Assembly (NCBI GenBank): GCA_046734955.1
Contig: JBKPSH010000113.1
Location: forward strand, 33,518-97,517
From: Acidobacteriota bacterium
GTDB lineage: Bacteria; Acidobacteriota; Vicinamibacteria; Vicinamibacterales; 2-12-FULL-66-21
Direction of reading: 5' to 3'
DNA: 64,000 nt
A program made the position numbers and the translations under genes. The notes below the pieces were generated by a model. That model was given only the letters and a program-made list of their open reading frames with translations. It searched no databases and had not been told where the DNA came from. This document shows positions 44,862-62,486 of this stretch, piece after piece. Every line of letters starts with the position of its first letter. Position 1 is the stretch's first letter.

Positions 44862-45911
44862 ATGCGGCCGGATCAGTGGGAGACGTTCAAGCGCGCGGCG
44901 AGGCGGGAAAAACTGGACAAGGTGCCGATGGCGCTGATTGTCGACAGCCCGTGGATCCCTGGCTACCTTGGGATCAAGCATCTCGATTACTACCTCGATC
45001 CGCAGCTCTGGTTCGAGTCAAACCTCAAGATCATGCGGGAATTTCCTGACATCATCATGGTGCCGTCGTGGTGGATGGAATACGGGATGGCGGCCGAACC
45101 GTCGGTGCTTGGGGCCAAGATCAAGTTCTGGCAGGACAACACACCCAGCGAGTACCACACGCTCTACCGGCTGGAAGACATCGATCAATTTCCGGAATAC
45201 GAAGTCGAAGCGGACGCATTCGCCGCGCTGACGCTCCACCGAATCGGCATGCACCGCCAGCAGATCCTCGACCACGGCTACATCCTCCCGATGGTGACGT
45301 CGCGGGGACCACTCTGCACCGCGGGTTTCGTGCGAAGCACAACGAATTTAATGATCGAGCTGGTGGAGAACCCCGACGGGGCGCACAAACTGATCGACTT
45401 GTGCACGCGTGTGATCATCGACTGGCTCAAAGCGCAGCACAAAGTCATGGGCGACACGGTCGAGGGCATCTTCATCCTCGACGACATCGTCGGATTCATC
45501 AACGAAGATCACTACCAGGAATTCGCACACCCCTACCTGAAGCGGATCTGTGATGCCTTTCCAAAGGACTGGGTCAAGGTGTACCACAACGACGCCGAAG
45601 TCGACGCGTGCCTCGATTACCTGCCCGATGCGGGGTTTCACGTGCTCAACTGGGGCAAGCAGAAAGACATTCGCGAAGTGAAGGCGCGTGTCGGCGATCG
45701 CATGTGCCTCATGGGCAATGTGAATCCGCTCGAGATCGCGGTACGTGGCACCCCCGAAGAAGTCAGAGACGCAACGCTCGACGTCCTTGAAGGATCAGGC
45801 GGCGAAGGCATCATCCTGTCGGTCGGCGGCGGCGTCAGCCCCGGGATGCCGCGCGAAAACATCGTCGCGATGCTCGAAGCACTCGAAGAGTTCAATTCCA
45901 GCCGTGTTTGA
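44862..45911 (+). CDS. URO-D/MtaA-family methyltransferase
   Basis: 349 aa with a uroporphyrinogen-decarboxylase-like TIM-barrel pattern (ILDDIVGFI, NVNPLEI, ILSVGGGVSPGMP). First gene of the corrinoid operon. Confidence 0.75.
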   Translation: MRPDQWETFKRAARREKLDKVPMALIVDSPWIPGYLGIKHLDYYLDPQLWFESNLKIMREFPDIIMVPSWWMEYGMAAEPSVLGAKIKFWQDNTPSEYHTLYRLEDIDQFPEYEVEADAFAALTLHRIGMHRQQILDHGYILPMVTSRGPLCTAGFVRSTTNLMIELVENPDGAHKLIDLCTRVIIDWLKAQHKVMGDTVEGIFILDDIVGFINEDHYQEFAHPYLKRICDAFPKDWVKVYHNDAEVDACLDYLPDAGFHVLNWGKQKDIREVKARVGDRMCLMGNVNPLEIAVRGTPEEVRDATLDVLEGSGGEGIILSVGGGVSPGMPRENIVAMLEALEEFNSSRV

Positions 45912-46555
45912 ACATGCCTGATTACGCGCTGATGAACCAGTACCTCTACGAAGGCAATGCCAAAGAGGTCGAGCAGATGACGAAGGACGCCCTCGCTGAA
46001 GGACGTCCCGTCCAGGAGGTTCTCACCGAAGGGCTGATTGCCGGCATGAGCGTCGTCGGAGAGGATTTCAAACACAACGTGCTCTATGTTCCGGAAGTGT
46101 TAATTGCTGCCAGAGCGATGAAGGCGGGAATGGCCGTGCTCAAACCGCTCCTGAGCGCCAAAGACAGCGCTGTCGAACGCAAGGGCGTGCTGCTGATGGG
46201 AACCGTGCGCGGTGATCTGCACGACATCGGGAAGAATCTCGTGTGCATGATGGCGGAGGGAGCCGGGTTCGAAGTCGTCGACATCGGTGTCGACCAAAGC
46301 GTCGAGAAGTTCATGGCAGCCGCAGAGAAGTGCCAACCAGTGATCATCGGAATGAGCGCGCTTCTGACGACGACGATGACTTACATGAAGACGGTCATCG
46401 ACGGATTCGAGAAGGCCGGCAAGGGACACATCAAGATGGCCGTCGGTGGCGCCCCGATCAGCCAGATGTTCGCTGACGAGATCGGCGCGGACGGCTACGG
46501 ACAGAACGCCTCCGCCGCGGTGGATCTGTTCCTGCGTCTGGCTAGGCAGTCCTAA
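45908..46555 (+). CDS. Corrinoid (B12-binding) protein
   Basis: 215 aa with the DxHxxG...SxL...GG signature: GDLHDIGKNLV, MSALLTTT, MAVGGAP. ATGA overlap with the upstream gene. Confidence 0.9.
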   Translation: MNMPDYALMNQYLYEGNAKEVEQMTKDALAEGRPVQEVLTEGLIAGMSVVGEDFKHNVLYVPEVLIAARAMKAGMAVLKPLLSAKDSAVERKGVLLMGTVRGDLHDIGKNLVCMMAEGAGFEVVDIGVDQSVEKFMAAAEKCQPVIIGMSALLTTTMTYMKTVIDGFEKAGKGHIKMAVGGAPISQMFADEIGADGYGQNASAAVDLFLRLARQS

Positions 46556-46557
46556 AC

Positions 46558-46815
46558 GTGGCCACTTACACCATTCTCTACTGGCAGGAGATTCCTTCGC
46601 AGATCAAGGCGGAGGACGATCTCGACGACGTCACCTTGCCGCTCGATGCCAGATTCATGGAACGGATCGATCAACTCGCCAGTCAGCGTGGTCTCCAGGG
46701 AACAGACGATTACCTCGCTCAATGGCGATGGAGTGAACCACAGGAACGCACGGGAACGGCCGAAGAAGTCGCGCACGCGATCAAGCTGGAGCTCGAACGC
46801 GCCGCCGGTTGGTAG
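46558..46815 (+). CDS. Small conserved operon protein (hypothetical)
   Basis: 85 aa (MATYTILYWQEIPSQIKAEDD...). It starts 2 nt after the corrinoid-protein stop and shows coding-like GC3. Confidence 0.6.
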   Translation: MATYTILYWQEIPSQIKAEDDLDDVTLPLDARFMERIDQLASQRGLQGTDDYLAQWRWSEPQERTGTAEEVAHAIKLELERAAGW

Positions 46816-46827
46816 TCCTTTCCACGC

Positions 46828-48486
46828 ATGCCGGTCACCCTCACGGTCAACGGCCACCGGATCGTCGCGCCGACCGGCGTTTCGCTCTTCAGCCTCGCCG
46901 AACAGGCGGGCGTCCGCGTGCCGACCTCGTGCGTCACACAGGGGAAGTGCAAGGAATGCGTGGTTGAAGTGACGCGCGGGATGGAGTTGCTCTCGGCGCC
47001 TACCGATTTCGAGAAGCATCTCGATCTGCGCGGCAGCCCCTTCCGTCTTTCCTGCCAGTGCCGGATCGTGTCTGAACACGGCGAGGTTGACTGCCACACG
47101 ATGCGCCGCGGCCACATGCGCATCGAGCGAAAGGCATTGCACCTTCCCGTGACACACGAAACGACGCCGCTCGATCCAGCAGTGGCTCGGGACGGCGATC
47201 GCATTGTCGACACGGTCACAGGGGAAGAGATCGCGCGGTCGACCGGGCCGATGCACGGCCTCGCCGTCGACCTGGGGACGACAACGGTCGTCGTTCGTCT
47301 CATTGATCTTGAAAGCGGCGAGCTCGTGGCCGACGCATCGTTCGAGAATCCGCAGCGCTTCGGCGGCTCGGACGTCATGTCGAGAATTCACTACGACACC
47401 GAGCATCGCGGCCGATTGTTGATGCGGACCGTTGCCGGATATCTGAGCCACGCGATCACCGACCTGCCGGCCGATCCGGTCACCATCTACGACGTCGTGC
47501 TGGTCGGCAATTCAACCATGCGCGACCTGTTCTTCCGGCAGAGCGTGTATTCGATCGGACAGAACCCGTATCGGTCGATCACCGAAATTGAAATGGCCGA
47601 GGGAAAGCGGGCGACGACGAGCCTCACCACGACCGGGCGCCGCAGCCTCCTTCCCATTCATCCGAATGCGGGCGTCTCGGGTCTCCCGATCATCAGCGGC
47701 CATGTCGGCGCCGATGCTGCCGCGTGCATGCTGGCGGTCAATCTCGCGCACGAGGATCGTCTCGTTGCCATCATGGACATCGGGACGAACACCGAACTGA
47801 TTGTCGGCAACCGTGATCGCATTCTGGCGGCGTCCTGTCCCGCCGGCCCCGCATTCGAAGGCGGAGCAATCGCCTGCGGGATGCCTGGCCTGGACGGCGC
47901 GATTGAAGACGTGGCGATCAATGATGATGGAACGTTTCGGCTCGGTGTCATCGGCGGGGGTGCTCCGGATGGGATCTGCGGATCCGGTCTCGTTGATCTG
48001 CTGAGCGAGCTGCTTCGAACCGGCCGCATGAACGCGATGGGACGATTCGAAGACGACCTGGAACGAGTGATCCTCGATTCCAGTCGCAATATCTTTTTCC
48101 TGGAGCGCGACGTCAACGAGCTCGCACAGGCAAAGGGGGCCAACGTCGCAGGATTGCAGGTCGTCTTCAGCGATTACGGCATTCAATTCGACGACATAGC
48201 GGTGTTTTATCTGGCCGGTGGATTCGGCCGCCATTTGAAGAAGGGCGCGTCGAAGCGCATCGGACTCATCCCAAACATTGCAGACGAAAAGATCGTACAG
48301 GTCGGGAACGCGGCGCTCGAAGGTGCAACCATCGCGCTCGTGTCGCGCAGCCGGCGGCGGGAACTCGAGGCCTTGGTGAGAAAGGTGGAGCATCGCCGTC
48401 TCGAAACTCATCCCGGCTTTTTTGATTTCTTCGTCGATGGATGTCAGTTCCGACCTGCCGACTCTGGAAGCCGGGTGACCGGTTGA
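46828..48486 (+). CDS. Reductive activator of corrinoid enzymes (2Fe-2S ferredoxin + ASKHA/DUF4445)
   Basis: 552 aa. N-terminal CVTQGKCKECV...LSCQC cluster. ASKHA phosphate motifs AVDLGTTTVVVRL and IMDIGTNTELIVG. Confidence 0.85.
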   Translation: MPVTLTVNGHRIVAPTGVSLFSLAEQAGVRVPTSCVTQGKCKECVVEVTRGMELLSAPTDFEKHLDLRGSPFRLSCQCRIVSEHGEVDCHTMRRGHMRIERKALHLPVTHETTPLDPAVARDGDRIVDTVTGEEIARSTGPMHGLAVDLGTTTVVVRLIDLESGELVADASFENPQRFGGSDVMSRIHYDTEHRGRLLMRTVAGYLSHAITDLPADPVTIYDVVLVGNSTMRDLFFRQSVYSIGQNPYRSITEIEMAEGKRATTSLTTTGRRSLLPIHPNAGVSGLPIISGHVGADAAACMLAVNLAHEDRLVAIMDIGTNTELIVGNRDRILAASCPAGPAFEGGAIACGMPGLDGAIEDVAINDDGTFRLGVIGGGAPDGICGSGLVDLLSELLRTGRMNAMGRFEDDLERVILDSSRNIFFLERDVNELAQAKGANVAGLQVVFSDYGIQFDDIAVFYLAGGFGRHLKKGASKRIGLIPNIADEKIVQVGNAALEGATIALVSRSRRRELEALVRKVEHRRLETHPGFFDFFVDGCQFRPADSGSRVTG

Positions 48487-49709
48487 TCGAAATTGTCGAC
48501 AACTCGCCCGATATCAACGTTCAGCCTGCCGAGTATATGCGGCTGCTCGGATACCCTCGCGGCTTTACGCTCGAAGGACGCGCGCTGGAGCTCGCCGACA
48601 GCGCTCGCGAATGGTTCGAACGCAACGGACACCCGTGGGTTTTCGCGCGAGGTGTTGACACGCTGGCCGTCGAAGCCGATTCCGTCATCATCGATGGCGT
48701 CACCTTTAGCAGTCCTCGACTTCGCAGCACGTTGCACGACGCCGGAGCCCGAAGCGCCGTTCTCGTTGCCGTCAGCGCCGGGCCGGAGCTCGAGGAGGAA
48801 GCGCAGGCGCGGTGGCGTGATGCCAAGCCGGACGAGTATTTCTTCCTCGAAGTTTTCGGATCCGCTGTCGTCGAACACCTCGTGACGATGACCGGCGCAC
48901 GGCTCTGCGCGTGGGCCGACGGCGAAGGTGCGGCGATGCTCCCCCACTACAGCCCCGGTTACCCGGACTGGATCATTGACGAGCAGCCAAGCCTTCTCGA
49001 ACTAATTCGCGGCTCACGGCCCGACGCGATACGAATTGAAGCGATGGAATCGGGGATGCTGCGGCCGAAGAAGTCGCTGCTCGCGGTGTTCGGCGTCACG
49101 CATCATACTGATCGCGTTCGGCGATTGACAGAGTTGAGCCCATGCGAGAGCTGTTCATTCATCCCATGTCAGTACCGCCGCGCGCCGTACCGACGGTCAC
49201 GCGCGTCGTCAGCGTCGGAGTTACCGCTCAAGTCAGTCGAAACCGGCGCTCCGCTGACCAGGACTGCCAGCTACAGCGTCGGCCTCAAAGCGCTTCAACG
49301 ATGGCGACAGGAACGGCTCTCAATGACGGTCAGAGAAGACGGCCGAATCGCCGCCCTGTTTCGTTATGACGGGACGACCTGCACGAACATGGGAAGGCCG
49401 CTGCAGTTTCACTATCATGTGATCCTGGGACCACGCGAAAACGGCTATCCGATTCTGGAGCAATCGTGCGCGCCCGCACCCGGCGATGAAGGCCACACGT
49501 CCATGTGCCGGTACATCAGCGATCGCGAACAGCTGATGGCGACCATCGCGGTTGAGCATCCGCTCCACGGGCAGCCATTGGATGATGTGATTCGGTGGGT
49601 GCGGACGAGCAGTCCAGCCGGCTGTTACTGCGAGGTGGAGAGCCGCCAACACAAGTGGGGGCTCGTGCTCGAAACGATTCACTATGCGCTGTCTGTAGGC
49701 GCGGTCTAA
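48441..49709 (+). CDS. MetH activation-domain-like protein fused to a Cys-rich C-terminal domain of unknown function
   Basis: 422 aa. The N-terminal ~210 aa resemble the B12-dependent methionine synthase activation region (EYFFLEVFGSAVVEHL, HYSPGYPDWIIDEQPSLLELI). CESCSFIPC follows, then ~170 aa I cannot assign. TTG 48483 is an alternative start. Confidence 0.6.
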   Translation: MSVPTCRLWKPGDRLIEIVDNSPDINVQPAEYMRLLGYPRGFTLEGRALELADSAREWFERNGHPWVFARGVDTLAVEADSVIIDGVTFSSPRLRSTLHDAGARSAVLVAVSAGPELEEEAQARWRDAKPDEYFFLEVFGSAVVEHLVTMTGARLCAWADGEGAAMLPHYSPGYPDWIIDEQPSLLELIRGSRPDAIRIEAMESGMLRPKKSLLAVFGVTHHTDRVRRLTELSPCESCSFIPCQYRRAPYRRSRASSASELPLKSVETGAPLTRTASYSVGLKALQRWRQERLSMTVREDGRIAALFRYDGTTCTNMGRPLQFHYHVILGPRENGYPILEQSCAPAPGDEGHTSMCRYISDREQLMATIAVEHPLHGQPLDDVIRWVRTSSPAGCYCEVESRQHKWGLVLETIHYALSVGAV

Positions 49710-49748
49710 CGATGGCGGGGTCTCTAGACCCCGCCGGCATGTTTAACG

Positions 49749-50678
49749 TTGAAAAAAACTCTACTGGACGCAATCAAGGAACGGCCGCTGCTCGGCGATG
49801 GTGCGATGGGTACGCAACTGATGAGCGCCGGCCTCGAACAGGGCAACTGCGGCGAAGCCTGGAACCTGATACACCCTGAACGCGTCCTCGCGATTCAGCG
49901 TCGATACGTTGACGCCGGCTCGGACTGCCTCCTCACCAACACGTTTGGCGGCAGCCGAATCATGCTGAATCGGCATTCGCATGCTGATGATGTCGTCGCG
50001 GTCAACACGGCTGGCGTCGAACTCGCGCGCGAAGCGTTCGCCGGCCGTGACGGTTATGTGATTGGTGACATTGGTCCGTTCGGCGGGCTGATGGAGCCCT
50101 ACGGTGAGTTCACCGAGAAGCAGGTGCTGGGCGCCTTCCGCGAGCAGGCGAAAGCGCTGGTGGACGGCGGCGCCGACGCGATCATCATCGAAACACAAAC
50201 TTCGCTGGAGGAACTGGGCCTTGGCTTGACCGCGGCGCGTGAAGCAGGAGCCGCCTGCGTGATCGGGTCTATGGCCTACGACGTCACGCTTGATGGATCA
50301 ACATTTCGGACGATGATGGGCGTGGATCCGGAACGAGCTGCCGAGTTCATGCAGGAGCACGGTGCCGACATCGTCGCGCTGAACTGCGGCACCGGCATGG
50401 ACATGGAACGTGCCCGACACGCGGTGACGCGGTACGTCCAGGTCACCGATCTGCCGATCATGGTACAACCCAACGCCGGACAGCCGAAACTCGTGGACAT
50501 GAAGGTGGTCTACGATGAAACGCCCGACGAGATGGTCGCGGGTGTCGTCCCGTTGCTCGAAGCCGGTGCAAGCATCATCGGAGGGTGCTGCGGTAGCACA
50601 CCGGATCACATCCGTGCGTTCCGGCAGGCGATGGATCAATTCCGAATGGCAAAGCGCCTGCGGCCCGCGCGAGGATAG
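49749..50678 (+). CDS. Homocysteine S-methyltransferase-domain protein
   Basis: 309 aa from a TTG start. Contains LLGDGAMGTQL and the zinc Cys contexts LNCGTG and GGCCGSTPDHI. Confidence 0.85.
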   Translation: MKKTLLDAIKERPLLGDGAMGTQLMSAGLEQGNCGEAWNLIHPERVLAIQRRYVDAGSDCLLTNTFGGSRIMLNRHSHADDVVAVNTAGVELAREAFAGRDGYVIGDIGPFGGLMEPYGEFTEKQVLGAFREQAKALVDGGADAIIIETQTSLEELGLGLTAAREAGAACVIGSMAYDVTLDGSTFRTMMGVDPERAAEFMQEHGADIVALNCGTGMDMERARHAVTRYVQVTDLPIMVQPNAGQPKLVDMKVVYDETPDEMVAGVVPLLEAGASIIGGCCGSTPDHIRAFRQAMDQFRMAKRLRPARG

Positions 50679-50737: not shown

Positions 50738-51085
50738 ATGATGAAACAGCGGTTGTGTGATGTGAATTCGGCGGCAGTTGCGAAACTGCCGCAGCAGACC
50801 GACGACAAGTCGGGAATCGGCGTCCACTACGTCGACGCGTACATCAAGCCGATGAACGTGAAGCTCGAGAACGGCACCGCGGTCAAGTGCAAGCGGCGCG
50901 GTTTGAAGATCGTGTTGACGGTGGGCACCAAGAAGGGGGAAGGGCTCATGCGACGGCTCGCCGTCAGTCCGGATCCGGTGGTGATGCTGGACGCGGCGCT
51001 GCAGGAAGCGGCGAAGGGAGCGGGGGCGGAGCTGATCGTGGAGAGCGGAACAATGTATCTGAAATTGCTGAATGCTGATTGTTGA
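50738..51085 (+). CDS. Hypothetical protein
   Basis: 115 aa from ATG 50738 with coding-like third-position GC. The last codons (LLNADC*) lie inside the GCTGATT repeat. Confidence 0.45.
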   Translation: MMKQRLCDVNSAAVAKLPQQTDDKSGIGVHYVDAYIKPMNVKLENGTAVKCKRRGLKIVLTVGTKKGEGLMRRLAVSPDPVVMLDAALQEAAKGAGAELIVESGTMYLKLLNADC

Positions 51086-51136
51086 TTGGCTAAAACCAAT
51101 CAATCAGAAATCAGCAATCGACAATCAGCAATTTCA
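51060..51136. repeat. GCTGATT/AATCAGC heptamer hairpin, copy 2
   Basis: TGAAATTGCTGAATGCTGATTGTTGATTGG, loop CTAAAA, then CCAATCAATCAGAAATCAGCAATCGACAATCAGCAATTTCA. It lies between convergent stops at 51085 and 51141. Confidence 0.8.
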
Positions 51137-51140
51137 CAGC

Positions 51141-52166
51141 TCACCTTTGCACCCGTCCCGACGCGTCACCAGCCGCCAGCGCGTCCACCTCACCAACCGT
51201 TGCGCGATTGAAGTCGCCAGGTATGGTCTGCTTCAACGCACTCGCGGCGACCGCAAAACGCAACGCCGCGTCGTTCGATCGCCCGGTCACTAATCCGTAA
51301 ATCAGTCCCCCGGCAAAGCTGTCGCCACCGCCAATGCGATCGACGAGTCGCACGTTGTAGTGCTGGCTCTGGTGCATGGTCGTTCCGTCCCACAGCACGG
51401 CACTCCAGCCGTTGTCGCTCGCCGACAGGCTCTCGCGCAGTGTGATCGCGACCATCGACGGGCCAAGTTCGCGCGTCACGCGCTCAGCCGCGGCACGATA
51501 CGCGGCGACGTTCAGCGATCCTGACGTGACGTCGGCTCCCGCGACGTCGATACCGAGGACGCACTGCAAATCCTCCTCGTTGGCGATGACGACATCAACG
51601 TCACGCATCAACGGCCGCATCGTCTGCTGCGCCTGCGCCTGGGTCCAAAGCTTTTTACGGTAATTCAGATCAACGCTGATGCGCGCGCCGGCGCGTTTGG
51701 CCGACGCAACGGCTGCCTGAGTGGCCGCTGTGGTCTTTGCCCCAAGCGCCGGAGTTATCCCGGTGACGTGGAACCACGCAGCACCTTTCATGACGCGGTC
51801 CCAATCCACCGCATCCGGCGGCATCTCGCTGATGGCGGAATTCGCGCGATCGTACAAAACGGTGGACGCGCGCTGGCTGGCACCGGTCTCAGTGAAATAG
51901 ATCCCCATCCGGCTGCCGCCGCGAACGATGCCATCCGTCCGCACACCCTCGGCGCGCAGCGCGCGCACTGCAGCGTCGCCAATGGCATTCGAAGGCAGCC
52001 GGGTCACGTAACTGCTGTCGAGACCGAACTGCGCGAGACTGACAGCGACATTTGCTTCTCCGCCGCCGAACGTCGCGCAGAGCATCGGTGATTGCAGGAG
52101 TCGCTCGAATCCCGGCGGGCCGAGCCGCAGCATCAGCTCACCGAATGTGACGACCGGCGCGGTCAT
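51141..52166 (-). CDS. kdgK: 2-dehydro-3-deoxygluconokinase (PfkB family)
   Basis: ATG 52166 gives [15 protein letters not shown]...[17 protein letters not shown]-terminal [10 protein letters not shown] is present. Confidence 0.85.
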
Positions 52167-52825
52167 TTCGCTCTCGCTGCCTTCACGTTTTCGACAAACC
52201 TCCGCGCGTTGGCGGTAATGACAGCGAAGTTGCCGGTCTCGATTGCCTTGGCATCCAGCAGCGACGATCCGGCCGCGACGGCGACGGCACCGGCGCGGAT
52301 CCAGTCGCCCGCGTTGTCCGGTGTTACACCACCCGTCGGCATCAGCTTGACTTGCGGCAGTGGTGCACGAACGTCCTTGATGTATTGAGGTCCAAGCGTC
52401 GTCGCGGGGAACACTTTGACGATGTCGGCGCCCGCGTCGTGTGCCTCGAGGATCTCGGTTGGAGTGAAGCAGCCAGGAGCGGCGGGAACACCGCGCTCGT
52501 GGCACGCCTCGATCACTGATCGCCTGAACACCGGGGAAATAACAAACTGGGCACCGGCATCGACAACCGCCCGAGCAGTTTCAGAATCAATCACCGTGCC
52601 GGCACCAAGCAGGAAACCTTCGGGCAGCGTCGGCGCGAGGCCGCGTATCAACTCGACGGCTCCAGGCACCGTCATCGTGACCTCCAGCGCGCGCACACCG
52701 CCGGCCATAATCGCGTCCACGACCGCTCGCAGTTTGCCCGGGTCACGCAGGCGAATGACAGCGACAATGCCGAGCTCTTCGATCTGTCGGACGGTTGCAC
52801 TTCGATCAAGCATGACTTTGTTCAT
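52163..52825 (-). CDS. eda: KDPG / 4-hydroxy-2-oxoglutarate aldolase
   Basis: ATG 52825 ([12 protein letters not shown]). Contains [10 protein letters not shown] and the Schiff-base Lys context [12 protein letters not shown] overlap with kdgK. Confidence 0.88.
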
Positions 52826-53641: not shown

Positions 53642-54415
53642 ATGTCGAAAAACCTTTTCAGTCTAGAAGGACGCGTTGCCGTTGTTGTCGGGGGAACGAG
53701 CGGGATTGGACGAGTGCTGGCGCTGGGACTCGCGGATGCGGGCGCCGATGTCGTCGCGACCGCACGTCGGGCGCCGCTCGTGGAAGAGGTCGCCGCCGCG
53801 ATCGCGGCAAAAGGACGAAAAACGTTGCGGATCGCGACCGACGTGCTCGACCGGTCGTCGCTCACCCAGGCCGCCGACGCGATCCAGAAGGCATTCGGTC
53901 ACATCGACATCGTGGTCTACTGCGCGGGCATCAACAAGAGAGTTCCGACGATCGATATGACCGACGAAGACTGGCAGCGCATCATCGATACGAACCTGAC
54001 CGGGGCGGTGCGGACATATCAAGTGTTTGCCAGGCCGATGATGGCGCGGCGATCCGGCAGGCTCATCGGCATTGCCTCTCTCTCCTCGTTTGTCGGCCTT
54101 CACGAGGTCAGCGCCTACACCGCATCGAAAGCTGGGATCGCCGGATTGACCCGCGCGCTCGCGGTAGAGTGGGCGCCGCATGGTTTGACCGTCAACGCGA
54201 TCGCTCCCGGCGTGTATCGCACCGAGTTGAATGCAAAGCTCCTCGAAGGACCGCGAGGTCAGGAATTCCTGCTTCGCACGCCGATGAAACGCTACGGTAA
54301 TCTTGAAGAGCTCGTCGGGGCCGCGGTGTATCTTGCGTCCGACGCGTCGACGTTCGTGACCGGACAAGTGATCGCGGTCGACGGCGGGTTCCTCGCCAGT
54401 GGAGTGAACCAGTGA
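53642..54415 (+). CDS. SDR-family oxidoreductase (KduD/gluconate 5-dehydrogenase-like)
   Basis: ATG 53642 (MSKNLFSLEGRVAVVVGGTSGIG). YxxxK motif YTASKAGIAGL. Confidence 0.85.
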   Translation: MSKNLFSLEGRVAVVVGGTSGIGRVLALGLADAGADVVATARRAPLVEEVAAAIAAKGRKTLRIATDVLDRSSLTQAADAIQKAFGHIDIVVYCAGINKRVPTIDMTDEDWQRIIDTNLTGAVRTYQVFARPMMARRSGRLIGIASLSSFVGLHEVSAYTASKAGIAGLTRALAVEWAPHGLTVNAIAPGVYRTELNAKLLEGPRGQEFLLRTPMKRYGNLEELVGAAVYLASDASTFVTGQVIAVDGGFLASGVNQ

Positions 54416-54765
54416 GCCAGGTGCCGGCGCTCGTGATCAGTGCGCGCGACAACGTCGCGACCGCGTTGCAACCGCTCGAAGCGGGTCAGACGATCAGAGT
54501 CGGCGATGAATCGATTACCGTCGCGGAGCAGACTCCACGCGGTCACAAGATTGCCCTGCGTCTGATTCGCAAGGGCGAAGTGGTCGTGAAGTACGGAAGC
54601 ACAATCGGCACGGCAACAGACGACATCCCCGCCGGTGCGCACGTACATACCCACAACGTCGCCAGTGGCCGCGGCCGCGGCGACCTGCACACGATTGCCG
54701 CAGAGGGCCCGCGGTTGGCCGAGCCGCCTGATCTCTCGCCGGTCACGGGGAAAACCGCGCAATGA
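54412..54765 (+). CDS. UxaA-family dehydratase, N-terminal SAF-domain subunit
   Basis: 117 aa with ISARDNVATALQPLEAGQ and PRGHKIAL. The GTG overlaps the SDR stop. Confidence 0.8.
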   Translation: MSQVPALVISARDNVATALQPLEAGQTIRVGDESITVAEQTPRGHKIALRLIRKGEVVVKYGSTIGTATDDIPAGAHVHTHNVASGRGRGDLHTIAAEGPRLAEPPDLSPVTGKTAQ

Positions 54766-55934
54766 ACGCGCTCACGTTCTCCGGCTACAGGCGGACCGAC
54801 GGCCGTGTTGGCGTCCGCAACCATGTGCTCGTCGTCCCGACCGTGATTTGCGCGTCGGTCGTCGCCGAGAGAATCGCGGACGCGATCGGACCAACAGGCG
54901 CGGCGCTGCCACATCTCGCCGGCTGCGGTCAGCTGGGACCCGATCGTCTCCTCACGCACGAGACGCTCGCCGCATACTGCGCGCATCCGAATGTCGGTGC
55001 GGTGGTGGTTGTCGCACTCGGATGCGAGCAGGTGATCGCCCAGCATCTGGCGAACGCGGCGCGAACTGCGGGAAAGCCCGCCGCAGTCATTGCGATTCAG
55101 AGTGAAGGCGGGACCGTTCGAACGACCGCGCGCGGCATCGAGATCGCGGCTTCGTTCGCCGCGTCGCTCGAGAGCGAACCGCGTGTCCCCTGTGACGTTT
55201 CATCTTTGATTCTGTGTGTAAAGTGCGGCGGCTCAGACTACACCTCCGGCCTGGCGGCAAACCCCGCGCTGGGCCGGGTGGCCGATCGACTGGTTGATGC
55301 GGGAGGGACGGCGGTGCTCGGTGAAATCGCCGAGATCATGGGCGCCGAGCATCTGCTTGCTGCCCGTGCGGCGTCGCCCGAACCGGCGGCGCAACTGCTC
55401 AGGATCATCAAGCGCGTCGAATCCGAGGCGGTGGCACTCGGGCTCGACATCCGGGGCACACAGCCATCACCCGGAAACATTCGCGGGGGCCTGACGACGA
55501 TCGAAGAGAAGTCTCTCGGCGCCACACACAAAGGCGGCGAGCGAACACCGCTGACTGACGTCGTCCCATATGCCGGCCGCATCACCAAGCGTGGACTGAC
55601 GGTCATGGACACGCCCGGCCTCGACGTCGAGTCGGTGACCGGCATGGTCGGCGGTGGCGCTCAAGTCGTGGTCTTTACCACCGGTCTTGGAACGCCGACA
55701 GGCAATCCGATCGCGCCCGTGATCAAGATCACTGGTAACGCCCAGACTGCTGCCGCCATGGCCGACAATCTCGACGATGACGTGAGCGGCATACTCGACG
55801 GCGCGGAAACACTGGAGATGGCCGCGGATCGGTTGATGGCGGACGTGCTGGCGGTCGCGTCCGGCCGGCCCACCGCCGCCGAGCGACTTGGCCATCGCGA
55901 GTTCGCGATTCATCGCAGGAATCCGACGATATGA
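54762..55934 (+). CDS. UxaA-family (altronate/galactarate-type) dehydratase, large subunit
   Basis: 390 aa with FSGYRRTDGRVGVRNHVLVVPTV and LGCEQV. Confidence 0.85.
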   Translation: MNALTFSGYRRTDGRVGVRNHVLVVPTVICASVVAERIADAIGPTGAALPHLAGCGQLGPDRLLTHETLAAYCAHPNVGAVVVVALGCEQVIAQHLANAARTAGKPAAVIAIQSEGGTVRTTARGIEIAASFAASLESEPRVPCDVSSLILCVKCGGSDYTSGLAANPALGRVADRLVDAGGTAVLGEIAEIMGAEHLLAARAASPEPAAQLLRIIKRVESEAVALGLDIRGTQPSPGNIRGGLTTIEEKSLGATHKGGERTPLTDVVPYAGRITKRGLTVMDTPGLDVESVTGMVGGGAQVVVFTTGLGTPTGNPIAPVIKITGNAQTAAAMADNLDDDVSGILDGAETLEMAADRLMADVLAVASGRPTAAERLGHREFAIHRRNPTI

Positions 55935-55944
55935 ATCATGTTGC

Positions 55945-55974
55945 CGGGATCCGTTGTTCGGGATCCGGGATCCG
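55945..55974. repeat. CGGGATC repeat element, copy B
   Basis: CGGGATCCGTTGTTCGGGATCCGGGATCCG. It differs from copy A (15375-15405) by one substitution over the first 24 nt. Confidence 0.75.
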
Positions 55975-56024
55975 TTTGCGTCACTTCGTGGACTCCGCGT
56001 TTAGGCGGAACTTCAGCGATTGAG

Positions 56025-57320
56025 ATGGCTGTTCCCCTTCAAGCCGACCGACCTGTTGCCGCAACGCGCGTCGGACACGTGCGCTGGGTGATCTGTGCGC
56101 TGCTGTTCTTTGGCACGACCATCAATTACATCGACCGGCAGGTCCTCGGGATCCTGGCGCCGGATCTGCAGCGTGACATCGGGTGGAGCGAGCTCGATTA
56201 CGGACGCATCGTCATCGCGTTCCAGGTGGCCTACGCGGTGATGATGCTGGCGTGGGGACGGATTCTCGACAAGATCGGGACGAAATTGGGATTCGGGATC
56301 GCCGTGGTGTGGTGGTCAGTGGCCGCGATGGGCACCGCGTTCGCGCGATCCGCGATGCAATTCGGCGTCGCGCGCTTCCTGCTGGGCGTCGGAGAGGCGG
56401 CGAACTTTCCTGCATCGATCAAAACCGTCGCCGAGTGGTTTCCCAAGAGCGAACGCGCCTTCGCGACTGGCATCTTCAACTCCGGAACAAACATCGGCGC
56501 CGTTGTTGCTCCGATCATGGTTCCGCTGATGGCCGCGAAATGGGGGTGGCAGGCGGCATTCATCGGCACGGGTGCGCTCGGATTCCTCTGGTTGATTGCG
56601 TGGTGGGCGATCTACTACGGACCCACAGCGCATCCGCGCTTGACCGCCGTCGAGCGTCAACACATTCAGGACGGCATCGACGAACCGGTCACCTCCAGGG
56701 TGCCGGTCAGTGAAGTCCTCGGAAGGCGCCAGCTGTGGGCATTCGCATCGGGAAAACTGCTAACCGATCCGATCTGGTGGTTTTATCTCTTCTGGCTTCC
56801 GAAGTTTCTCGCCCAGGAACATGACATTCGCGGCACGGCGCTGATTCCGTATCTCACAAGTGTTTACATCATCGCCGACTTCGGCTCCGTGATCGGCGGT
56901 TACGTCTCGTCCACTCTCATCAAACGCGGATGGACAGTGAACGCCGCGCGCAAAACGACCATGGGGATCTTCGCGGCGATGGTTCCCTTTGTCATCATTG
57001 CGGGGCAGACGCGAAGCGCATGGCTGGCCGTCGGTCTCATCGGCATGGCCACCGCCTGTCACCAGGCCTGGTCGGCCAATCTGTTCACGCTCTCGTCTGA
57101 CATGTTCCCGCGCCGTGCCGTCGGGACAGTCGTCGGCATCGGCGGGTTCGCCGGGGGGGTGGGCGGCATCCTGATCGCCGAGTTCGCGGGCCGCGTTCTA
57201 CAGCGAGATCCAAGCTTCTATCTGCCGATGTTCGTCGTTGCGGGACTCATTTATCTCGTCGCGCTCGGCGTGATTCATCTTTTCGCGCCGCGCCTCGAGC
57301 GCGTCGACCTGTCGGGCTAA
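56025..57320 (+). CDS. MFS transporter (hexuronate/ACS-family-like)
   Basis: ATG 56025 (MAVPLQADRP). Contains FGTTINYIDRQVLGILAP and has 12-TM character. Confidence 0.85.
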   Translation: MAVPLQADRPVAATRVGHVRWVICALLFFGTTINYIDRQVLGILAPDLQRDIGWSELDYGRIVIAFQVAYAVMMLAWGRILDKIGTKLGFGIAVVWWSVAAMGTAFARSAMQFGVARFLLGVGEAANFPASIKTVAEWFPKSERAFATGIFNSGTNIGAVVAPIMVPLMAAKWGWQAAFIGTGALGFLWLIAWWAIYYGPTAHPRLTAVERQHIQDGIDEPVTSRVPVSEVLGRRQLWAFASGKLLTDPIWWFYLFWLPKFLAQEHDIRGTALIPYLTSVYIIADFGSVIGGYVSSTLIKRGWTVNAARKTTMGIFAAMVPFVIIAGQTRSAWLAVGLIGMATACHQAWSANLFTLSSDMFPRRAVGTVVGIGGFAGGVGGILIAEFAGRVLQRDPSFYLPMFVVAGLIYLVALGVIHLFAPRLERVDLSG

Positions 57321-57322
57321 TC

Positions 57323-58609
57323 ATGACTGTCGATACCAGCGTGCTCGGCACCGGCGCGCCGTCGGCCGATCTCAACGTCACCGACATGGGGCCGATCGTC
57401 GACGCTGCGTTGCACGCGATCAAGCCGGGCTCGCGCGTCCTCGCGGTCGTCTCGGATCGCACGCGCGACGACAACACACCCGAACTCTTTCCGCTCGTCT
57501 CGCAGACACTGGCGCGGATCGGCGCCGCCTCGCTTGACGTTCTGATCGCGCAGGGCACGCACGTCGCGATGAATGATGCCGACAAGCGCGCAAAGATCGG
57601 CGCCGGACTCGCATCGATGCCCCTCCTCGGAACGATTTTCGATCATCACTGGGACCGCCAGTCTGAACTGACGACGCTTGGCACGATCGGCGCCGACGTG
57701 ATCGCACAGGAAACCGGCGGACTGCTGAACGAATCGGTTAAGATTCGGTTGAACGCGCGGCTTGCGCCGGGGCAGTACGATCACGTGCTCGTGCTCGGCG
57801 CGGTGGTGCCACACGAGGTCGCCGGATTCGCAGGAGGAGCGAAGTACTTCTTTCCCGGTGTCGCCGGACCAGAACTGACGCACCTGACTCACTGGCTCGG
57901 GGCGCTCGCCACAATCGAGCGGGTGATCGGCCGGGTCGAAACCCCGACACGGCACCTCATCGAGGCGGCGGCCGCATTCGTTCCTGCGCCCGTAACCGCA
58001 TTCACCACCGTTGCGACTCGCGATGCAGCCGGTCTGAAGACGCGAGCGCTCTTCACCGGGGACATCCGCGGGACCGTACGCCGCGCCGCCGAGATCAGCC
58101 AGCACGTGCACGTCCGCTACACGGACCGCTACTACCCGCGCGTCGTCGCGATCCTCGACGAGCACTACGACGAACTCTGGGTCGGTGGTAAGGCGAGCTA
58201 CAAACTCGGCGGCATCATCGACAAGGGCGGGGAACTGATCATCTACGCGCCGCATCTGTCCGCGATTTCGCTGACGCATGGCGCGCTGATCGAGAAGTAC
58301 GGCTACGCTCCGCTCGAACGCGTCCGCGACATGGTGGAAGGCTCCGACGAACTACGGGCGAACCTCTGTGTGGCCGCCCACCTGGCTCACGTCGCCTATG
58401 CCGGGGAGAAGGGGAACGATGGGGTCGTCGTGCCGCGATACCGCATTACGCTTGCAGCCAACTTGCCAGAGGCGACGACTCGTCGAGTCAATCTCGGCTA
58501 CCTTGATGTGCGGACGTTCGATCCCCGCGACTATCGTGACGACCCGGATACGCTCATTGTCGAGAACGCAGGGCGCGATCTCTATCTCGTGAGTCGGGAA
58601 GGCAGATAG
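57323..58609 (+). CDS. LarA-family (nickel-pincer-dependent 2-hydroxyacid racemase/epimerase-like) protein
   Basis: 428 aa with LIAQGTHVAMN and VVPHEVAGFAGGAKYFFPGV. By eye these align to the catalytic His pair and cofactor-tethering Lys of lactate racemase. It starts 2 nt after the MFS stop. Confidence 0.75.
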   Translation: MTVDTSVLGTGAPSADLNVTDMGPIVDAALHAIKPGSRVLAVVSDRTRDDNTPELFPLVSQTLARIGAASLDVLIAQGTHVAMNDADKRAKIGAGLASMPLLGTIFDHHWDRQSELTTLGTIGADVIAQETGGLLNESVKIRLNARLAPGQYDHVLVLGAVVPHEVAGFAGGAKYFFPGVAGPELTHLTHWLGALATIERVIGRVETPTRHLIEAAAAFVPAPVTAFTTVATRDAAGLKTRALFTGDIRGTVRRAAEISQHVHVRYTDRYYPRVVAILDEHYDELWVGGKASYKLGGIIDKGGELIIYAPHLSAISLTHGALIEKYGYAPLERVRDMVEGSDELRANLCVAAHLAHVAYAGEKGNDGVVVPRYRITLAANLPEATTRRVNLGYLDVRTFDPRDYRDDPDTLIVENAGRDLYLVSREGR

Positions 58610-58636
58610 CCGGGTTCGCTCAAATCAACGTCTTCT

Positions 58637-59319
58637 ACTGTCACACTGCGACCTTACCTAGAGACTGGAACGGAGAAGGAAGAAAGGAGAACCAATTCTT
58701 TTCTCCCCTACTTCCGGTGGCAAAAACTGCAACCCCGCCGGCACGGACCCATTGCAGAAACTGAAACACTAACCGCAAAAGCTCTGGAGATTCCTAAGTT
58801 CCCGAATAGATTTTCAGTCGGCGAAGTCCTTGCAACGCAACAACGCATGTTCAGAGACATCGCCGGCCACGAAGATCTGACGGAAGCCATTATTGGCTGT
58901 GCCATGCGTGTGCACGAACACTGGGGACCAGGCTTACTCGAATCTGTCTACAAGGCATGCCTGGTTGTTGAACTCAAGGCAGAGGGGCACCGAGTGAATA
59001 CGAACCTCAGAGTTCCATTCATTTACAAGGGCCGCGATCTCAAGACGGACTTCTGTCCAGACTTGATCATCGACGACATCGTGGTTGGTGAACTGAAGGT
59101 CGTCGAGAAACTTGCGCCGGTCCACAAAGCGCAAGTGGTCACGTATCTAAAGTTGACGCGCCTACCAGTGGGCTTGCTGATGAACTTCAATGTCCCGTTG
59201 CTCAAACAGGTGACTCACCGCATCGTACGGCCGGATTCACTGATTAGAAGCGAATAGCCTCCATTCTCCCTTCTCCTTTCTCCTTTTCTGGCTCTAAGTC
59301 ATGATCGCAGTGTGACTGT
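58637..59319. mobile_element. Inverted-repeat-bounded GxxExxY cassette 2 (putative insertion module)
   Basis: IR-L at 58637-58693 (ACTGTCACACTGCGACCTTACCTAGAGACTGGAACGGAGAAGGAAGAAAGGAGAACC) matches the reverse complement of IR-R at 59259-59319. Total length is 683 bp and the interior is lower in GC. Confidence 0.5.
58847..59257 (+). CDS. GxxExxY (PD-(D/E)xK, PDDEXK_3-like) protein
   Basis: 136 aa with LTEAIIGCAMRVHEHWGPGLLESVY and DLIIDDIVVGELKVV. Confidence 0.8.
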   Translation: MFRDIAGHEDLTEAIIGCAMRVHEHWGPGLLESVYKACLVVELKAEGHRVNTNLRVPFIYKGRDLKTDFCPDLIIDDIVVGELKVVEKLAPVHKAQVVTYLKLTRLPVGLLMNFNVPLLKQVTHRIVRPDSLIRSE

Positions 59320-59344
59320 GAAGGTGCCGAGGTGAGTTTTCCTT

Positions 59345-61285: not shown

Positions 61286-61292
61286 TGACGCC

Positions 61293-61320
61293 AATCAGCA
61301 ATCAGCAATCAGCATTTTCA
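61293..61320. repeat. Solo AATCAGC arm
   Basis: AATCAGCAATCAGCAATCAGCATTTTCA. Its TCA is the lacI-family stop codon. It fills most of the spacer to the GH97 start. Confidence 0.75.
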
Positions 61321-62343
61321 GAATGCGTCCTTGCCGCCGCTGGAGCGGCGAACGATGAGCTGCGGAGGGATCACGACGGCCTGAAATTTGTCTGACGATG
61401 GATTTGGCCCGATGCGATCGAGAAGCAGCCGCGCGGCTTCCTTGCCCTGCTGATCGCGAGACCAGCTCACCGTCGATAGTGGCACGCGCAGGAGATCGCC
61501 GAGTGCAATGTCGCCGGCGCCGACCACGCCAATGTCCTCGGGCACGCGAAGTCGTGCGTCCCAAATTGCTTTCATCGCGCCAATCGCGGCCGGATCGTTG
61601 GCGGCAAAGACGGCATCGACACGCGGCTTGACCGCCAGCAGTTTCTTCATCGCGCGATAGCCATCCGCTTCCATGAATCCGCCACGCACCATCCATTCGA
61701 CCCGCGATCGCACTTTGTGTTGCTTCAGCGCCGAACGGTAGCCCTCGGCCCGCCTCTTCGCGTGGACGATTGGAGGCCCGAGTATGTGCGCAATCGCCTT
61801 CCGCCCCTGCTCGATCAAATGCGACGTCGCCAGCCTGCCAACTTCCACGTCGTCGGTGACGACGCGATCGCATTTCACGACCGGATGATCGTCGCGGTCG
61901 ATCATGACCAGGCCGATGCCGAGTGAGCCGAGTTTCTGAAGCAGGTCGGTGTTCCCTGATGCGTTGACCGACGCGAGGATGATTCCATCGACCTGGCGCT
62001 GGCGGAGCATGTCGATCTCAGCGCGCTCCTTGACCGGATCTTCATTCGAGCTGCAAAGCAGCAGACCGTAGCCGCGCGCACTCGCGACCGTTTCGAGTCC
62101 GGCGACAATCTCGACGAAGAACGAGTGCATCAGATCGGGAATGACGACGCCGAGGGTGTGCGTGCGCCGCAACGTGAGACTGCGCGCGACGGCATTGGGC
62201 TGGTATCCGAGCTCGGCGACCTTCGCGAGCACGCGTTCGCGTGTCGCATGACCGATGTCGTCGCGATTGTTGAGGACCTTGGAAACGGTCGTAATGGAGA
62301 CACCAAGCTCTCCCGCGATCCGTTTCATCGTCGGCTCTGCCAT
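61318..62343 (-). CDS. LacI-family transcriptional regulator
   Basis: 341 aa with HTH MKRIAGELGVSITTVSKVLNN and a periplasmic-binding-fold C-terminus. Confidence 0.9.
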   Translation of the reverse strand: MAEPTMKRIAGELGVSITTVSKVLNNRDDIGHATRERVLAKVAELGYQPNAVARSLTLRRTHTLGVVIPDLMHSFFVEIVAGLETVASARGYGLLLCSSNEDPVKERAEIDMLRQRQVDGIILASVNASGNTDLLQKLGSLGIGLVMIDRDDHPVVKCDRVVTDDVEVGRLATSHLIEQGRKAIAHILGPPIVHAKRRAEGYRSALKQHKVRSRVEWMVRGGFMEADGYRAMKKLLAVKPRVDAVFAANDPAAIGAMKAIWDARLRVPEDIGVVGAGDIALGDLLRVPLSTVSWSRDQQGKEAARLLLDRIGPNPSSDKFQAVVIPPQLIVRRSSGGKDAF

Positions 62344-62390
62344 CGTTGACTTTTCGCGTGCGCGTCCAGCGTTTGGGGAAGCGCAAATGG

Positions 62391-62404
62391 CTTTAACGTT
62401 AAAG
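62391..62404. promoter_or_regulatory. Perfect 14-bp palindrome, LacI-type operator candidate O1
   Basis: CTTTAACGTTAAAG has a central CG, as in LacI/GalR-family operators. It lies between the regulator and the TonB receptor gene. Confidence 0.6.
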
Positions 62405-62412
62405 TTAATTGA

Positions 62413-62426
62413 CTTTAACGGTAAAG
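62413..62426. promoter_or_regulatory. Near-palindromic operator candidate O2
   Basis: CTTTAACGGTAAAG differs from O1 by one base. It lies inside the spacer of a possible TTGACT(62409-14)-17 nt-TATCAC(62432-37) promoter. Confidence 0.5.
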
Positions 62427-62486
62427 CATAGTATCACAGGCGCCGCGCTCACCGGAGCGCCAACCCTGCCCGTCAGGAGGCGCGTG

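Follow-up and report, generated by a model that had tools for sequence, protein, structure and literature searches.

The 64,000-nucleotide stretch of contig JBKPSH010000113.1 from an Acidobacteriota bacterium (the window, meaning that whole stretch) carries on its forward strand a compact cluster of seven genes, which we propose encodes a cobalamin-dependent methyl transfer system. In the reading that we favour, with a probability of roughly 0.55, the seven proteins would move the methyl group of a methylated sugar acid to a corrinoid protein and from there to homocysteine, the likeliest donor being 4-O-methyl-D-glucuronate from glucuronoxylan. The observations on which this is built are the gene content of the cluster, the folds and motifs of its products, its synteny and its genomic association with genes that act on glucuronyl side chains. 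Transfer from a non-folate donor through the corrinoid protein to homocysteine, as put forward in a first-pass annotation of this DNA, stays the most economical reading. Domains were called on the open reading frames (ORFs) of the window by Pfam and NCBIfam profile scans, and the features of the cluster are:

44862..45911, + strand: URO-D-superfamily methyltransferase, 349 amino acids (PF01208, E = 2.9e-43), the proposed substrate:corrinoid methyltransferase I (MT-I)
45914..46555, + strand: corrinoid (B12-binding) protein, 213 amino acids from ATG (PF02607 and PF02310); the ORF is open from TTG 45908
46558..46815, + strand: 85-amino-acid PF13769 protein (E = 1.3e-15)
46828..48486, + strand: 2Fe-2S and ASKHA reductive activator (activase) of the RACo/RamA/AcsV type, 552 amino acids (Fer2, Raco_middle, RACo_C_ter)
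48483..49709 (ORF from 48441), + strand: protein 5, about 408 amino acids, with a MetH activation-domain fold in its N-terminal half by modelling
49714..49735, + strand: perfect hairpin of 9 bp, rich in GC, GGCGGGGTC-tcta-GACCCCGCC, seen in the sequence itself
49749..50678, + strand: homocysteine S-methyltransferase domain protein, 309 amino acids (PF02574, E = 5.7e-61), the proposed methyltransferase II (MT-II)
50738..51085, + strand: seventh gene, for a protein of 114-115 amino acids in no known family, recognised by synteny

A conserved seven-gene cluster

A genome collection with one genome per species was scanned using the URO-D protein as query. The window proteins were then compared by tblastn against 86 loci, and neighbour counts are given over 87 loci. 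At least 532 relatives of the URO-D protein were found, the best 80 of which are all 87-97% identical to it, and within these 80 the closest (96-97%) come from Vicinamibacterales or unclassified Acidobacteriota metagenome-assembled genomes, which makes an origin of the window in Vicinamibacterales probable. At least 500 species genomes carry the seven-gene set, in one or the other of two gene orders; they belong to Acidobacteriota, Planctomycetota, Chloroflexota, Gemmatimonadota, KSB1 and Ignavibacteria. All seven genes are present on plasmid 1 of the cultured Gemmatirosa kalamazoonensis KBS708, where they lie at about 924.2-930.7 kb of NZ_CP007129.1. The main order (URO-D > corrinoid protein > PF13769 > activase > protein 5 > homocysteine methyltransferase) is seen throughout the surveyed loci; exact collinearity of all seven genes, with the small protein last, was found in 46 of the 87, and most of the others end at contig limits. 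Ignavibacteria and KSB1 have a permuted order (activase > protein 5 > small protein > URO-D > corrinoid protein > PF13769 > homocysteine methyltransferase), and in the permuted and KSB1 variants the small-protein gene lies directly upstream of the URO-D gene. The search for shared synteny that had been suggested as a check on the first-pass annotation thus returned the same gene set in more than 60 independent loci, so that the arrangement is far beyond chance.

Some loci depart from this layout. In the permuted clusters (L087-L089, Ignavibacteria and KSB1) the homocysteine methyltransferase is only 42-44% identical to that of the window, the URO-D protein being 81-84% and the corrinoid protein 85-88% identical, and the homocysteine module may have been exchanged independently there. 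Among uncultured Acidobacteriota, the URO-D gene lies 5-9 kb away from its corrinoid protein in L013 and L015-L017, and no corrinoid protein was found within locus L019.

Within the window, the six ORFs first annotated lie on the + strand at the coordinates and with the domains given to them, as judged by Pfam and fold searches. They had been described as a six-gene operon, to which conserved synteny adds the gene at 50738-51085. The intergenic gaps across the seven genes are 2, 2, 12, -4, 39 and about 60 nt. An ATGA overlap had been claimed between genes 1 and 2; the junction between the URO-D stop and the corrinoid gene actually reads gtTTGAacATG and holds no such overlap, and the corrinoid protein probably starts at ATG 45914, which gives 213 residues and matches its homologues. 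Protein 5 most likely starts at TTG 48483, where its homologues begin, in a TTGA overlap with the activase stop.

The hairpin at 49714-49735 takes up the 39 nt that separate protein 5 from the TTG at which the homocysteine methyltransferase gene starts, and it might serve in the processing or stability of the mRNA or have an effect on translation. A second hairpin, of 8 bp (TTGATTGG ctaaaa CCAATCAA), at 51082-51103, overlaps the stop codon of the seventh gene and was not called by the terminator scan; repeated 'aatcagcaatc' motifs follow it, ahead of the end of a convergent PfkB gene at 51141. A simple promoter and terminator scan gave nothing useful for the boundaries of the + strand operon, and no SAM or cobalamin riboswitch was found when the whole window was searched against Rfam, where no family reached the gathering threshold.

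The proteins of the cluster

The URO-D protein is the most conserved of the set. It is 78-97% identical across at least six phyla and 81-88% identical between Acidobacteriota, Planctomycetota, Chloroflexota, KSB1 and Ignavibacteria, and when 50%-identity representatives were searched exhaustively, every full-length member at about 75% identity or more fell in one cluster, the next full-length relatives being only 38-42% identical. Third positions at conserved four-fold codons of the gene are 0.18-0.64 identical (mostly 0.4-0.5), and protein 5 is only 50-60% identical in the loci where the URO-D protein is 78-97%. Because the four-fold positions look saturated and protein 5 has diverged to this degree, the conservation points to very strong purifying selection, and recent horizontal transfer is excluded as its cause. 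A constraint of this kind exceeds that known for most housekeeping enzymes.

The best NCBIfam models for the URO-D protein are of the MtaA/CmuA type and of methylcobalamin:coenzyme M methyltransferase, at about 100 bits against cut-offs of 235-600 (TIGR01463, 101 bits, cut-off 235; the MtaA model, 73 bits, cut-off 400), while the HemE model TIGR01464 gives 61 bits (cut-off 303). It is about equally remote from the solved structures of HemE (E = 1e-11), MtaA (1e-8) and CdmB (1e-8), and the phmmer match to CdmB (9rui, E = 1.5e-8) covers the C-terminal half only. In the alignment to HemE (4wsh) RQAGR is replaced by VDS-P and GHG by GGG, and in that to MtaA (4ay7) HIC becomes HND and GCG becomes GGG, the His alone being retained. 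The failure of the first-pass annotation to find the H-x-C...C zinc triad of MtaA/MtbA is accounted for by these changes, and its view of the protein as neither HemE nor MtaA agrees with the scores far under the cut-offs. A true uroporphyrinogen decarboxylase is excluded by the residues, the score and the placement inside a B12 operon, and an MtaA-type thiol methyltransferase by the missing zinc cysteines. The invariant motifs of the family are DSPW, WxEYGMAxEPS, LDD, YHND and SxGGG, largely common to the 38-42% relatives also. Where MtaA has its zinc site, the invariant His-Asn-Asp is a candidate for the acid catalyst.

The affinity of the best models for MtaA/CmuA and methylcobalamin:coenzyme M enzymes could be taken to mean that the URO-D protein works on the acceptor side, as MtaA does, with a methyl group from methyl-tetrahydrofolate or S-adenosylmethionine (AdoMet) passing on the corrinoid protein to homocysteine, or through the URO-D protein to another acceptor. 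A KSB1 variant described below, in which methylenetetrahydrofolate reductase (MTHFR) and a pterin methyltransferase stand with the corrinoid and URO-D proteins, could indeed run either way. However, the acceptor-activating zinc site of the MtaA types is missing and the scores fall far short, the associated genes are degradative glycoside hydrolases and esterases and not biosynthetic, and the main cluster would have two acceptor methyltransferases and no donor enzyme. We consider an acceptor-side role very improbable.

The B12-binding motifs first noted in the product of gene 2 (DxHxxG/SxL/GG) can be read in its translation as DLHDIG, SAL and GG, and the protein also carries PF02607 and PF02310. 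It is 84-97% identical in most relatives, with two outliers at 48% and 76%. The best NCBIfam matches of the activase are AcsV and RamA, both under their cut-offs. The 85-amino-acid protein is a detached copy of the N-terminal domain of alphaproteobacterial RamA/RACo-type activases, because PF13769 is fused to Fer2 and RACo domains on a Terrarubrum plasmid (L091, 7080-9362), where a 760-amino-acid 'virulence factor' consists of PF13769, Fer2, RACo_linker, RACo_middle and RACo_C. Both the Pfam name 'Virulence_fact' for PF13769 and the RefSeq name 'virulence factor' are misnomers for a RamA/RACo activase domain.

Protein 5 had no match in Pfam or NCBIfam even at E = 10 and none among PDB profiles, and the PF02965 activation domain was not detectable in it by sequence in the Pfam and PDB profile searches. 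It was therefore modelled with AlphaFold from 30 homologues, with a predicted local distance difference test (pLDDT) of 68. The top Foldseek matches of the model are 1j6r, 8sse, 6bdy, 2o2k and 1msk, with E = 4e-8 to 4e-5 for 1j6r, 8sse, 6bdy and 1msk; residues ~16-232 match TM0269 (1j6r) with E = 3.7e-8 and a template-modelling (TM) score of 0.80, and the N-terminal half also matches the MetH reactivation domains of Thermus, E. coli and human. The model therefore supports the earlier suggestion that the N-terminal half of the protein at 48441 resembles the AdoMet-dependent reactivation domain of MetH, and its invariant LPHYSPGYP...ESGMLxPxKS is presumably the counterpart of the RPAPGYP AdoMet-binding region of E. 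coli MetH. A CxxCx4C linker follows and then a C-terminal Cys/His-rich domain; the invariant Cys and His residues of the C-terminal half fall in CxxCx4C, GTTCTN and AGCYC, and this half gave no significant structural match in the fold search. The family has about 3700 members, with no annotation among the 120 listed. Protein 5 was also compared with DUF1638, which was rejected at an hhalign probability of 0.1.

The homocysteine methyltransferase scores best with YitJ-type, alphaproteobacterial BHMT-type and MetH models and worst with the MmuM type (PRK08645, 252 bits; PRK07534, 225; MetH, 148; MmuM-type PRK09485, 87 against a cut-off of 215). The Cys/Cys-Cys zinc site that had been recognised in this PF02574 protein is formed by Cys213, Cys280 and Cys281, which are kept in all aligned loci (59, 57 and 57). 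In about 60 loci its gene keeps synteny with that of the corrinoid protein. An MmuM-type enzyme using AdoMet or S-methylmethionine and lacking conserved synteny had been named as the finding that would count against a corrinoid route; the enzyme is instead MetH/BHMT-like, and the MmuM type is excluded by the PRK09485 score and by the corrinoid synteny.

The protein of the seventh gene matches no family in Pfam, where it gave sub-threshold noise only (PilW_C, TusA), and its AlphaFold 2 model (pLDDT 79) found no fold match in the PDB, the best E being 0.065. Its family counts 7211 proteins, with no annotation among the 120 listed, and its synteny is kept in most complete loci.

Genomic neighbours and the methyl donor

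The flanking ORFs of the loci were clustered and the recurrent ones annotated, and GH67, GH115 and CE15 genes were then counted by tblastn within 10 kb. At least one of the three was present in 33 of the 87 loci (GH67 in 27, GH115 in 6 and CE15 in 7). These 33 loci span Acidobacteriota, Planctomycetota, Chloroflexota and KSB1, and the genes often run in the same direction as the cluster and immediately adjacent to it. What the unrelated families GH67, GH115 and CE15 have in common is that they act on the (4-O-methyl)glucuronyl side chain of xylan. Since the 4-O-methyl ether is the only methyl group in their chemistry, it would seem likely that the donor is 4-O-methyl-D-glucuronate or a close derivative. 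Other recurrent neighbours are an enolase-superfamily (ManD/GudD-like) dehydratase, a short-chain dehydrogenase (SDR), a xylose-isomerase-like barrel, ILVD/EDD dehydratases, TonB-dependent receptors and GH2.

The glucuronyl-targeting genes surround the cluster in at least six distinct arrangements. A GH67 gene ends 18-34 nt before the URO-D start in L038, L054 and L061, and GH115 lies 51-213 nt upstream in the planctomycetes L024, L044, L077 and L084. The order dehydratase > seven genes > SDR > GH67 recurs in Bryobacteraceae and Limnocylindrales, and in L057 and L063 protein 5 and the homocysteine methyltransferase are separated by a CE15 gene. In L015 a single strand carries CE15 > ILVD > URO-D > major facilitator superfamily (MFS) transporter > GH43 beta-xylosidase > GH67 > corrinoid protein > PF13769 > activase > protein 5 > homocysteine methyltransferase, and from its gene content the insert appears to be an aldouronate-utilisation operon spliced into the B12 cluster.

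The donors first proposed (aromatic ethers, thiols and amines) miss this pointer in the genome context, which is to a methylated sugar acid. One alternative is a lignin-derived methoxylated aromatic (ferulate, vanillate, syringate or a lignin-carbohydrate fragment) entering the same methyl flow. MtvB, OdmB, VdmB and MtoB, which are characterised URO-D MT-I enzymes, have aryl methyl ethers as their substrates, and some of these enzymes are zinc-free (PMC13222342), Acidobacteriota of Stordalen Mire express genes binned as 'methoxy' methyltransferases (PMC10805028), CE15 and other neighbouring esterases release lignin-linked material, and an aryl ether is chemically easier to cleave. Yet the match of the URO-D protein to CdmB, which has the only structure solved in the O-demethylase branch, is no better than those to HemE or MtaA (1e-8 to 1e-11), and the recurrent neighbours (GH67, GH115, ManD-like, SDR, KduI) are specific for the glucuronyl side chain or for sugar acids, with no aromatic-ring catabolic genes turning up in the flank survey. 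We regard an aromatic donor as quite unlikely.

As to which way the methyl group flows, what donates it and what protein 5, the PF13769 protein and the small protein do, we infer the following. GH67 and GH115 alpha-glucuronidases and CE15 esterases would free 4-O-methyl-D-glucuronate from glucuronoxylan. The URO-D protein, perhaps together with the 115-amino-acid protein, would transfer its methyl group to the Co(I) form of the corrinoid protein, giving glucuronate and the CH3-Co(III) form, and the PF02574 zinc enzyme would pass the methyl group on to homocysteine, giving methionine and regenerating Co(I). The demethylated glucuronate would enter ordinary hexuronate catabolism. Corrinoid protein oxidised to Co(II), as would be frequent in aerobes, would be reduced in an ATP-driven reaction by the 2Fe-2S/ASKHA activase with its detached PF13769 domain, and protein 5 would re-methylate Co(I) with AdoMet, trapping the reduced cofactor as in MetH. 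In some lineages the same corrinoid protein may also deliver to tetrahydrofolate through an adjoining pterin methyltransferase and MTHFR.

The folate connection was examined in the window and in its relatives. Neither Pterin_bind nor MTHFR gave a tblastn match within the 64-kb window, and Pterin_bind is not within the cluster in most relatives surveyed, so that the pterin module is missing here as first described. A pterin methyltransferase adjoining the cluster in relatives had been seen as a reason to doubt the non-folate route; it does adjoin the full cluster, with a MetVF-type MTHFR, in L057, L063 and L085 and is found in KSB1, but these are a minority. The KSB1 loci L005 and L006 have no activase, no protein 5 and no homocysteine methyltransferase; after the genes for the small protein, the URO-D protein (81% identical) and the corrinoid protein come one for an MTHFR of the fused MetVF type and one for a Pterin_bind methyltransferase, which stand in place of the homocysteine branch. 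This layout is the classic one of MT-I, corrinoid protein and MT-II. A complete aerobic-type quaternary-amine demethylase cluster is found on Paracoccus aminovorans plasmid IV (L092, NZ_LN832562.1, 277.7-286 kb) in the order MttB > corrinoid protein > DUF1638 > MetV-like > MetF > methyl-tetrahydrofolate:cobalamin (pterin) methyltransferase > ASKHA activase, and because the KSB1 and Paracoccus layouts are parallel the URO-D protein would fill the substrate-specific MT-I slot. The pterin and MTHFR neighbours in a minority of loci suggest that the corrinoid protein is a hub able to deliver to folate or to homocysteine. The description of the route as folate-independent is therefore true of the operon and not necessarily of the cell, since the hub can also talk to folate.

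The same neighbours bear on the question of whether the cluster is a housekeeping split MetH, with methyl-tetrahydrofolate as the main donor through a distant pterin subunit and the URO-D protein only supplying additional methyl groups or playing an accessory part, as MtgB does in Ruegeria. In the split MetH of Phaeobacter and Ruegeria the pterin subunit does lie at a distant locus (PMC5764234, PMC12478193), and the Pterin_bind and MTHFR genes adjoining L057, L063 and L085, the many loci that have no catabolic context at all and a predicted activation domain of the AdoMet type, typical of methionine synthases, would all be compatible with such a role. On the other hand, it is the URO-D gene and not a pterin gene that is the invariant partner and encodes the most conserved protein, the window has neither Pterin_bind nor MTHFR, and the KSB1 variant keeps the URO-D, corrinoid and small proteins while dropping the homocysteine branch, which suggests that the conserved core is the demethylase half and not the methionine-synthase half. 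A housekeeping role of this kind is unlikely, in our judgement. It has also to be asked whether the URO-D barrel might itself be a non-canonical methyl-folate or methyl-pterin module replacing the DHPS-like domain of MetH. Most clusters encode no pterin module, the methyl-folate binder MetE belongs to the wider URO-D superfamily (PMC10418091), and the extreme conservation of the URO-D protein would suit a housekeeping enzyme; however, the canonical Pterin_bind methyltransferase alongside it in KSB1 and in three other loci would be redundant, and the strong association with alpha-glucuronidases would be left unexplained. Of all the alternatives this is the least probable.

Several points weigh against the favoured reading as a whole. 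About 60% of the loci have no alpha-glucuronidase within 10 kb, among them most of the Acidobacteriaceae and the Vicinamibacterales relatives of the window, and these loci are linked only to general hexuronate genes or to nothing. A pterin methyltransferase may be encoded elsewhere in these genomes, and sequence does not tell which way the methyl group is transferred. Cleavage by Co(I) of an aliphatic (secondary-alkyl) methyl ether is chemically harder than that of an aryl ether, and a Lewis-acid zinc site is not evident. The model of protein 5 is of moderate confidence (pLDDT 68), with PF02965 undetectable by sequence. Lastly, by a rough estimate, the methyl flux from growth on glucuronoxylan alone would exceed the demand for methionine, and sinks in addition to homocysteine are therefore likely.

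The window itself has the following genes beside the cluster:

51141..52505, - strand: PfkB-family sugar kinase (KdgK-like; PF00294), convergent with the cluster and also found in L009 and L011
52822..53865, - strand: KduI/IolB-family isomerase of the hexuronate / 5-keto-4-deoxyuronate pathway (PF04962, E = 3.6e-70), also found by the cluster in L009 and L011
53600..54415, + strand: short-chain dehydrogenase (KduD/UxuB-like; Pfam)
54762..55934, following the SDR: altronate/galactarate-dehydratase-like gene (Pfam)
55938..57320, after the dehydratase-like gene: MFS transporter (Pfam)

A LacI regulator is also among the neighbours of the cluster in the window. Relatives of the SDR flank the cluster in 24 of the 87 loci. 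Two loci from Vicinamibacterales, L009 and L011, have the PfkB, KduI and SDR neighbours in common with the window. The altronate/galactarate-dehydratase-like gene encodes the 'second' and C-terminal domains only, and a 117-amino-acid ORF just upstream (54412-54765, + strand) might code for the N-terminal (SAF) part that it lacks, as a polypeptide of its own. In the Acidobacteriaceae loci L050, L068, L073 and L074 the strand opposite to the URO-D gene carries, about 650-830 nt upstream of it, a GH2 glycosidase gene; GH2 includes beta-glucuronidases. Four of the 38-42% relatives of the URO-D protein were viewed in their context. Two of them (41-42% identity) lie in sugar loci, one with ABC permeases, transaldolase and transketolase and the other with AP_endonuc_2; a third adjoins a GntR/FCD regulator and the fourth lies on a contig too short to inform, neither of these last two contigs pointing to a function. 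Positions 1-44000 and 57000-64000 of the window are ordinary chromosome, with histidine biosynthesis genes, 2-oxoglutarate dehydrogenase E1/E2, topoisomerase IV/gyrase subunits, gamma-glutamyltranspeptidase, a DUF1800/DUF1501 pair, a glycogen-debranching-type amylase, GH97, a LarA-like protein, a PD-(D/E)XK protein and a PhzF-like protein directly upstream of the cluster.

Related systems and significance

The first-pass annotation knew of no characterised system of this composition. A close analogue does exist in the split MetH of Phaeobacter inhibens and Ruegeria pomeroyi, which with its RamA-like activase has been characterised genetically (PMC5764234, PMC12478193). In both, the corrinoid protein and the PF02574 homocysteine methyltransferase are separate proteins and a 2Fe-2S/ASKHA activase of the RamA type is present; both occur in aerobes with an optional metF paralogue beside the pterin methyltransferase, and in both the corrinoid protein would be the hub that links a substrate demethylase to the synthesis of methionine, for which MtgBCDE of Ruegeria is the precedent (PMC12478193). 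The substrate methyltransferase, however, is here of the URO-D type and there of the MttB type, with no PF06253 in the cluster; DUF1638 (PF07796) is absent and protein 5, combining an activation-domain fold with a Cys/His domain, is found instead; and the pterin subunit lies outside the conserved set, which forms a single operon with an extra 115-amino-acid protein and a different inferred donor.

URO-D-type MT-I enzymes are known for aryl ethers and chloromethane (PMC13222342, PMC8630106). The anaerobe systems MtvABC, OdmABD, VdmB, MtoABCD and CdmBCA share with the present cluster a URO-D MT-I, a small corrinoid protein and an ATP-dependent activator of the RACE type, and zinc-free MT-I enzymes occur in this O-demethylase and chloromethane group also. 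They differ in that soil heterotrophs, mainly aerobic ones, host the present cluster, that its substrate would be the methyl ether of a sugar, and that its MT-II is of the homocysteine type, a folate MT-II being found only in the KSB1 variant and three loci; the relation of the URO-D MT-I to CdmB is only remote (phmmer E ~1e-8, C-terminal half). Compared with MetH (EC 2.1.1.13), the homocysteine and B12-cap/B12 modules are represented, and the activation-domain module may be, in that the N-terminal half of the protein 5 model superposes on TM0269 of the Thermotoga split MetH (TM0268/TM0269; TM 0.80). Unlike in MetH, the modules are separate polypeptides, PF00809 is absent from the cluster, an ATP-dependent activase is added and the putative activation domain is unrecognisable by sequence.

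A connection with methionine has been proposed for the type 1 mlp clusters described by Kountz and Balskus (PMC10418091). These have two to three Mlps with zinc sites, lack PF02574 and belong to obligate anaerobes, mostly Firmicutes, whereas in the present cluster the single URO-D protein is zinc-less and homocysteine has a dedicated methyltransferase; composition and hosts exclude their being the same system. According to the summary in PMC13425298, which cites Reisky et al. (2018), marine bacteria demethylate 6-O-methyl-D-galactose oxidatively with a P450. As that summary presents it, this too is a dedicated demethylation of a polysaccharide-derived sugar in a polysaccharide-utilisation locus; the P450 uses O2 and releases formaldehyde, whereas the B12 system would conserve the methyl group. 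A search of the literature did not find the seven-gene system described, and searching for methylglucuronate together with corrinoid, cobalamin or demethylase returned nothing relevant.

Few polymers on land are more abundant than glucuronoxylan, whose glucuronic acid side chains are for the most part 4-O-methylated. The literature searched held no account of how bacteria remove this methyl group. With slightly less than even odds, the cluster may be the first system to remove the 4-O-methyl ether of glucuronoxylan-derived glucuronic acid, in a cobalamin-dependent manner with transfer to homocysteine, in mainly aerobic soil bacteria of the Acidobacteriota, Planctomycetota, Gemmatimonadota, Chloroflexota and KSB1; that this 4-O-demethylation would be carried out by a new URO-D subfamily, a new 115-amino-acid partner and a new activation protein is likewise a tentative proposal, just short of an even chance. 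That a methylated sugar acid is a new class of substrate, for a system related to the corrinoid three-component and split-MetH kinds, is well supported but unproven.

If the reading is correct, a gap in hemicellulose catabolism would be filled, and corrinoid three-component methyltransferases would be extended to aliphatic sugar ethers and to aerobes. Methyl groups of plant origin would pass directly into methionine and the pool of AdoMet, bypassing folate and tying cell-wall decay to amino-acid synthesis, and dominant, poorly cultured soil phyla would be given a concrete and abundant reason to need vitamin B12. Even with another donor, a module in at least 500 species genomes whose URO-D protein is 81-88% identical between phyla, and two of whose proteins (protein 5 and the 115-amino-acid protein) are without any family annotation, would be of interest, and the cultured carrier G. 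kalamazoonensis KBS708 makes the system directly testable.

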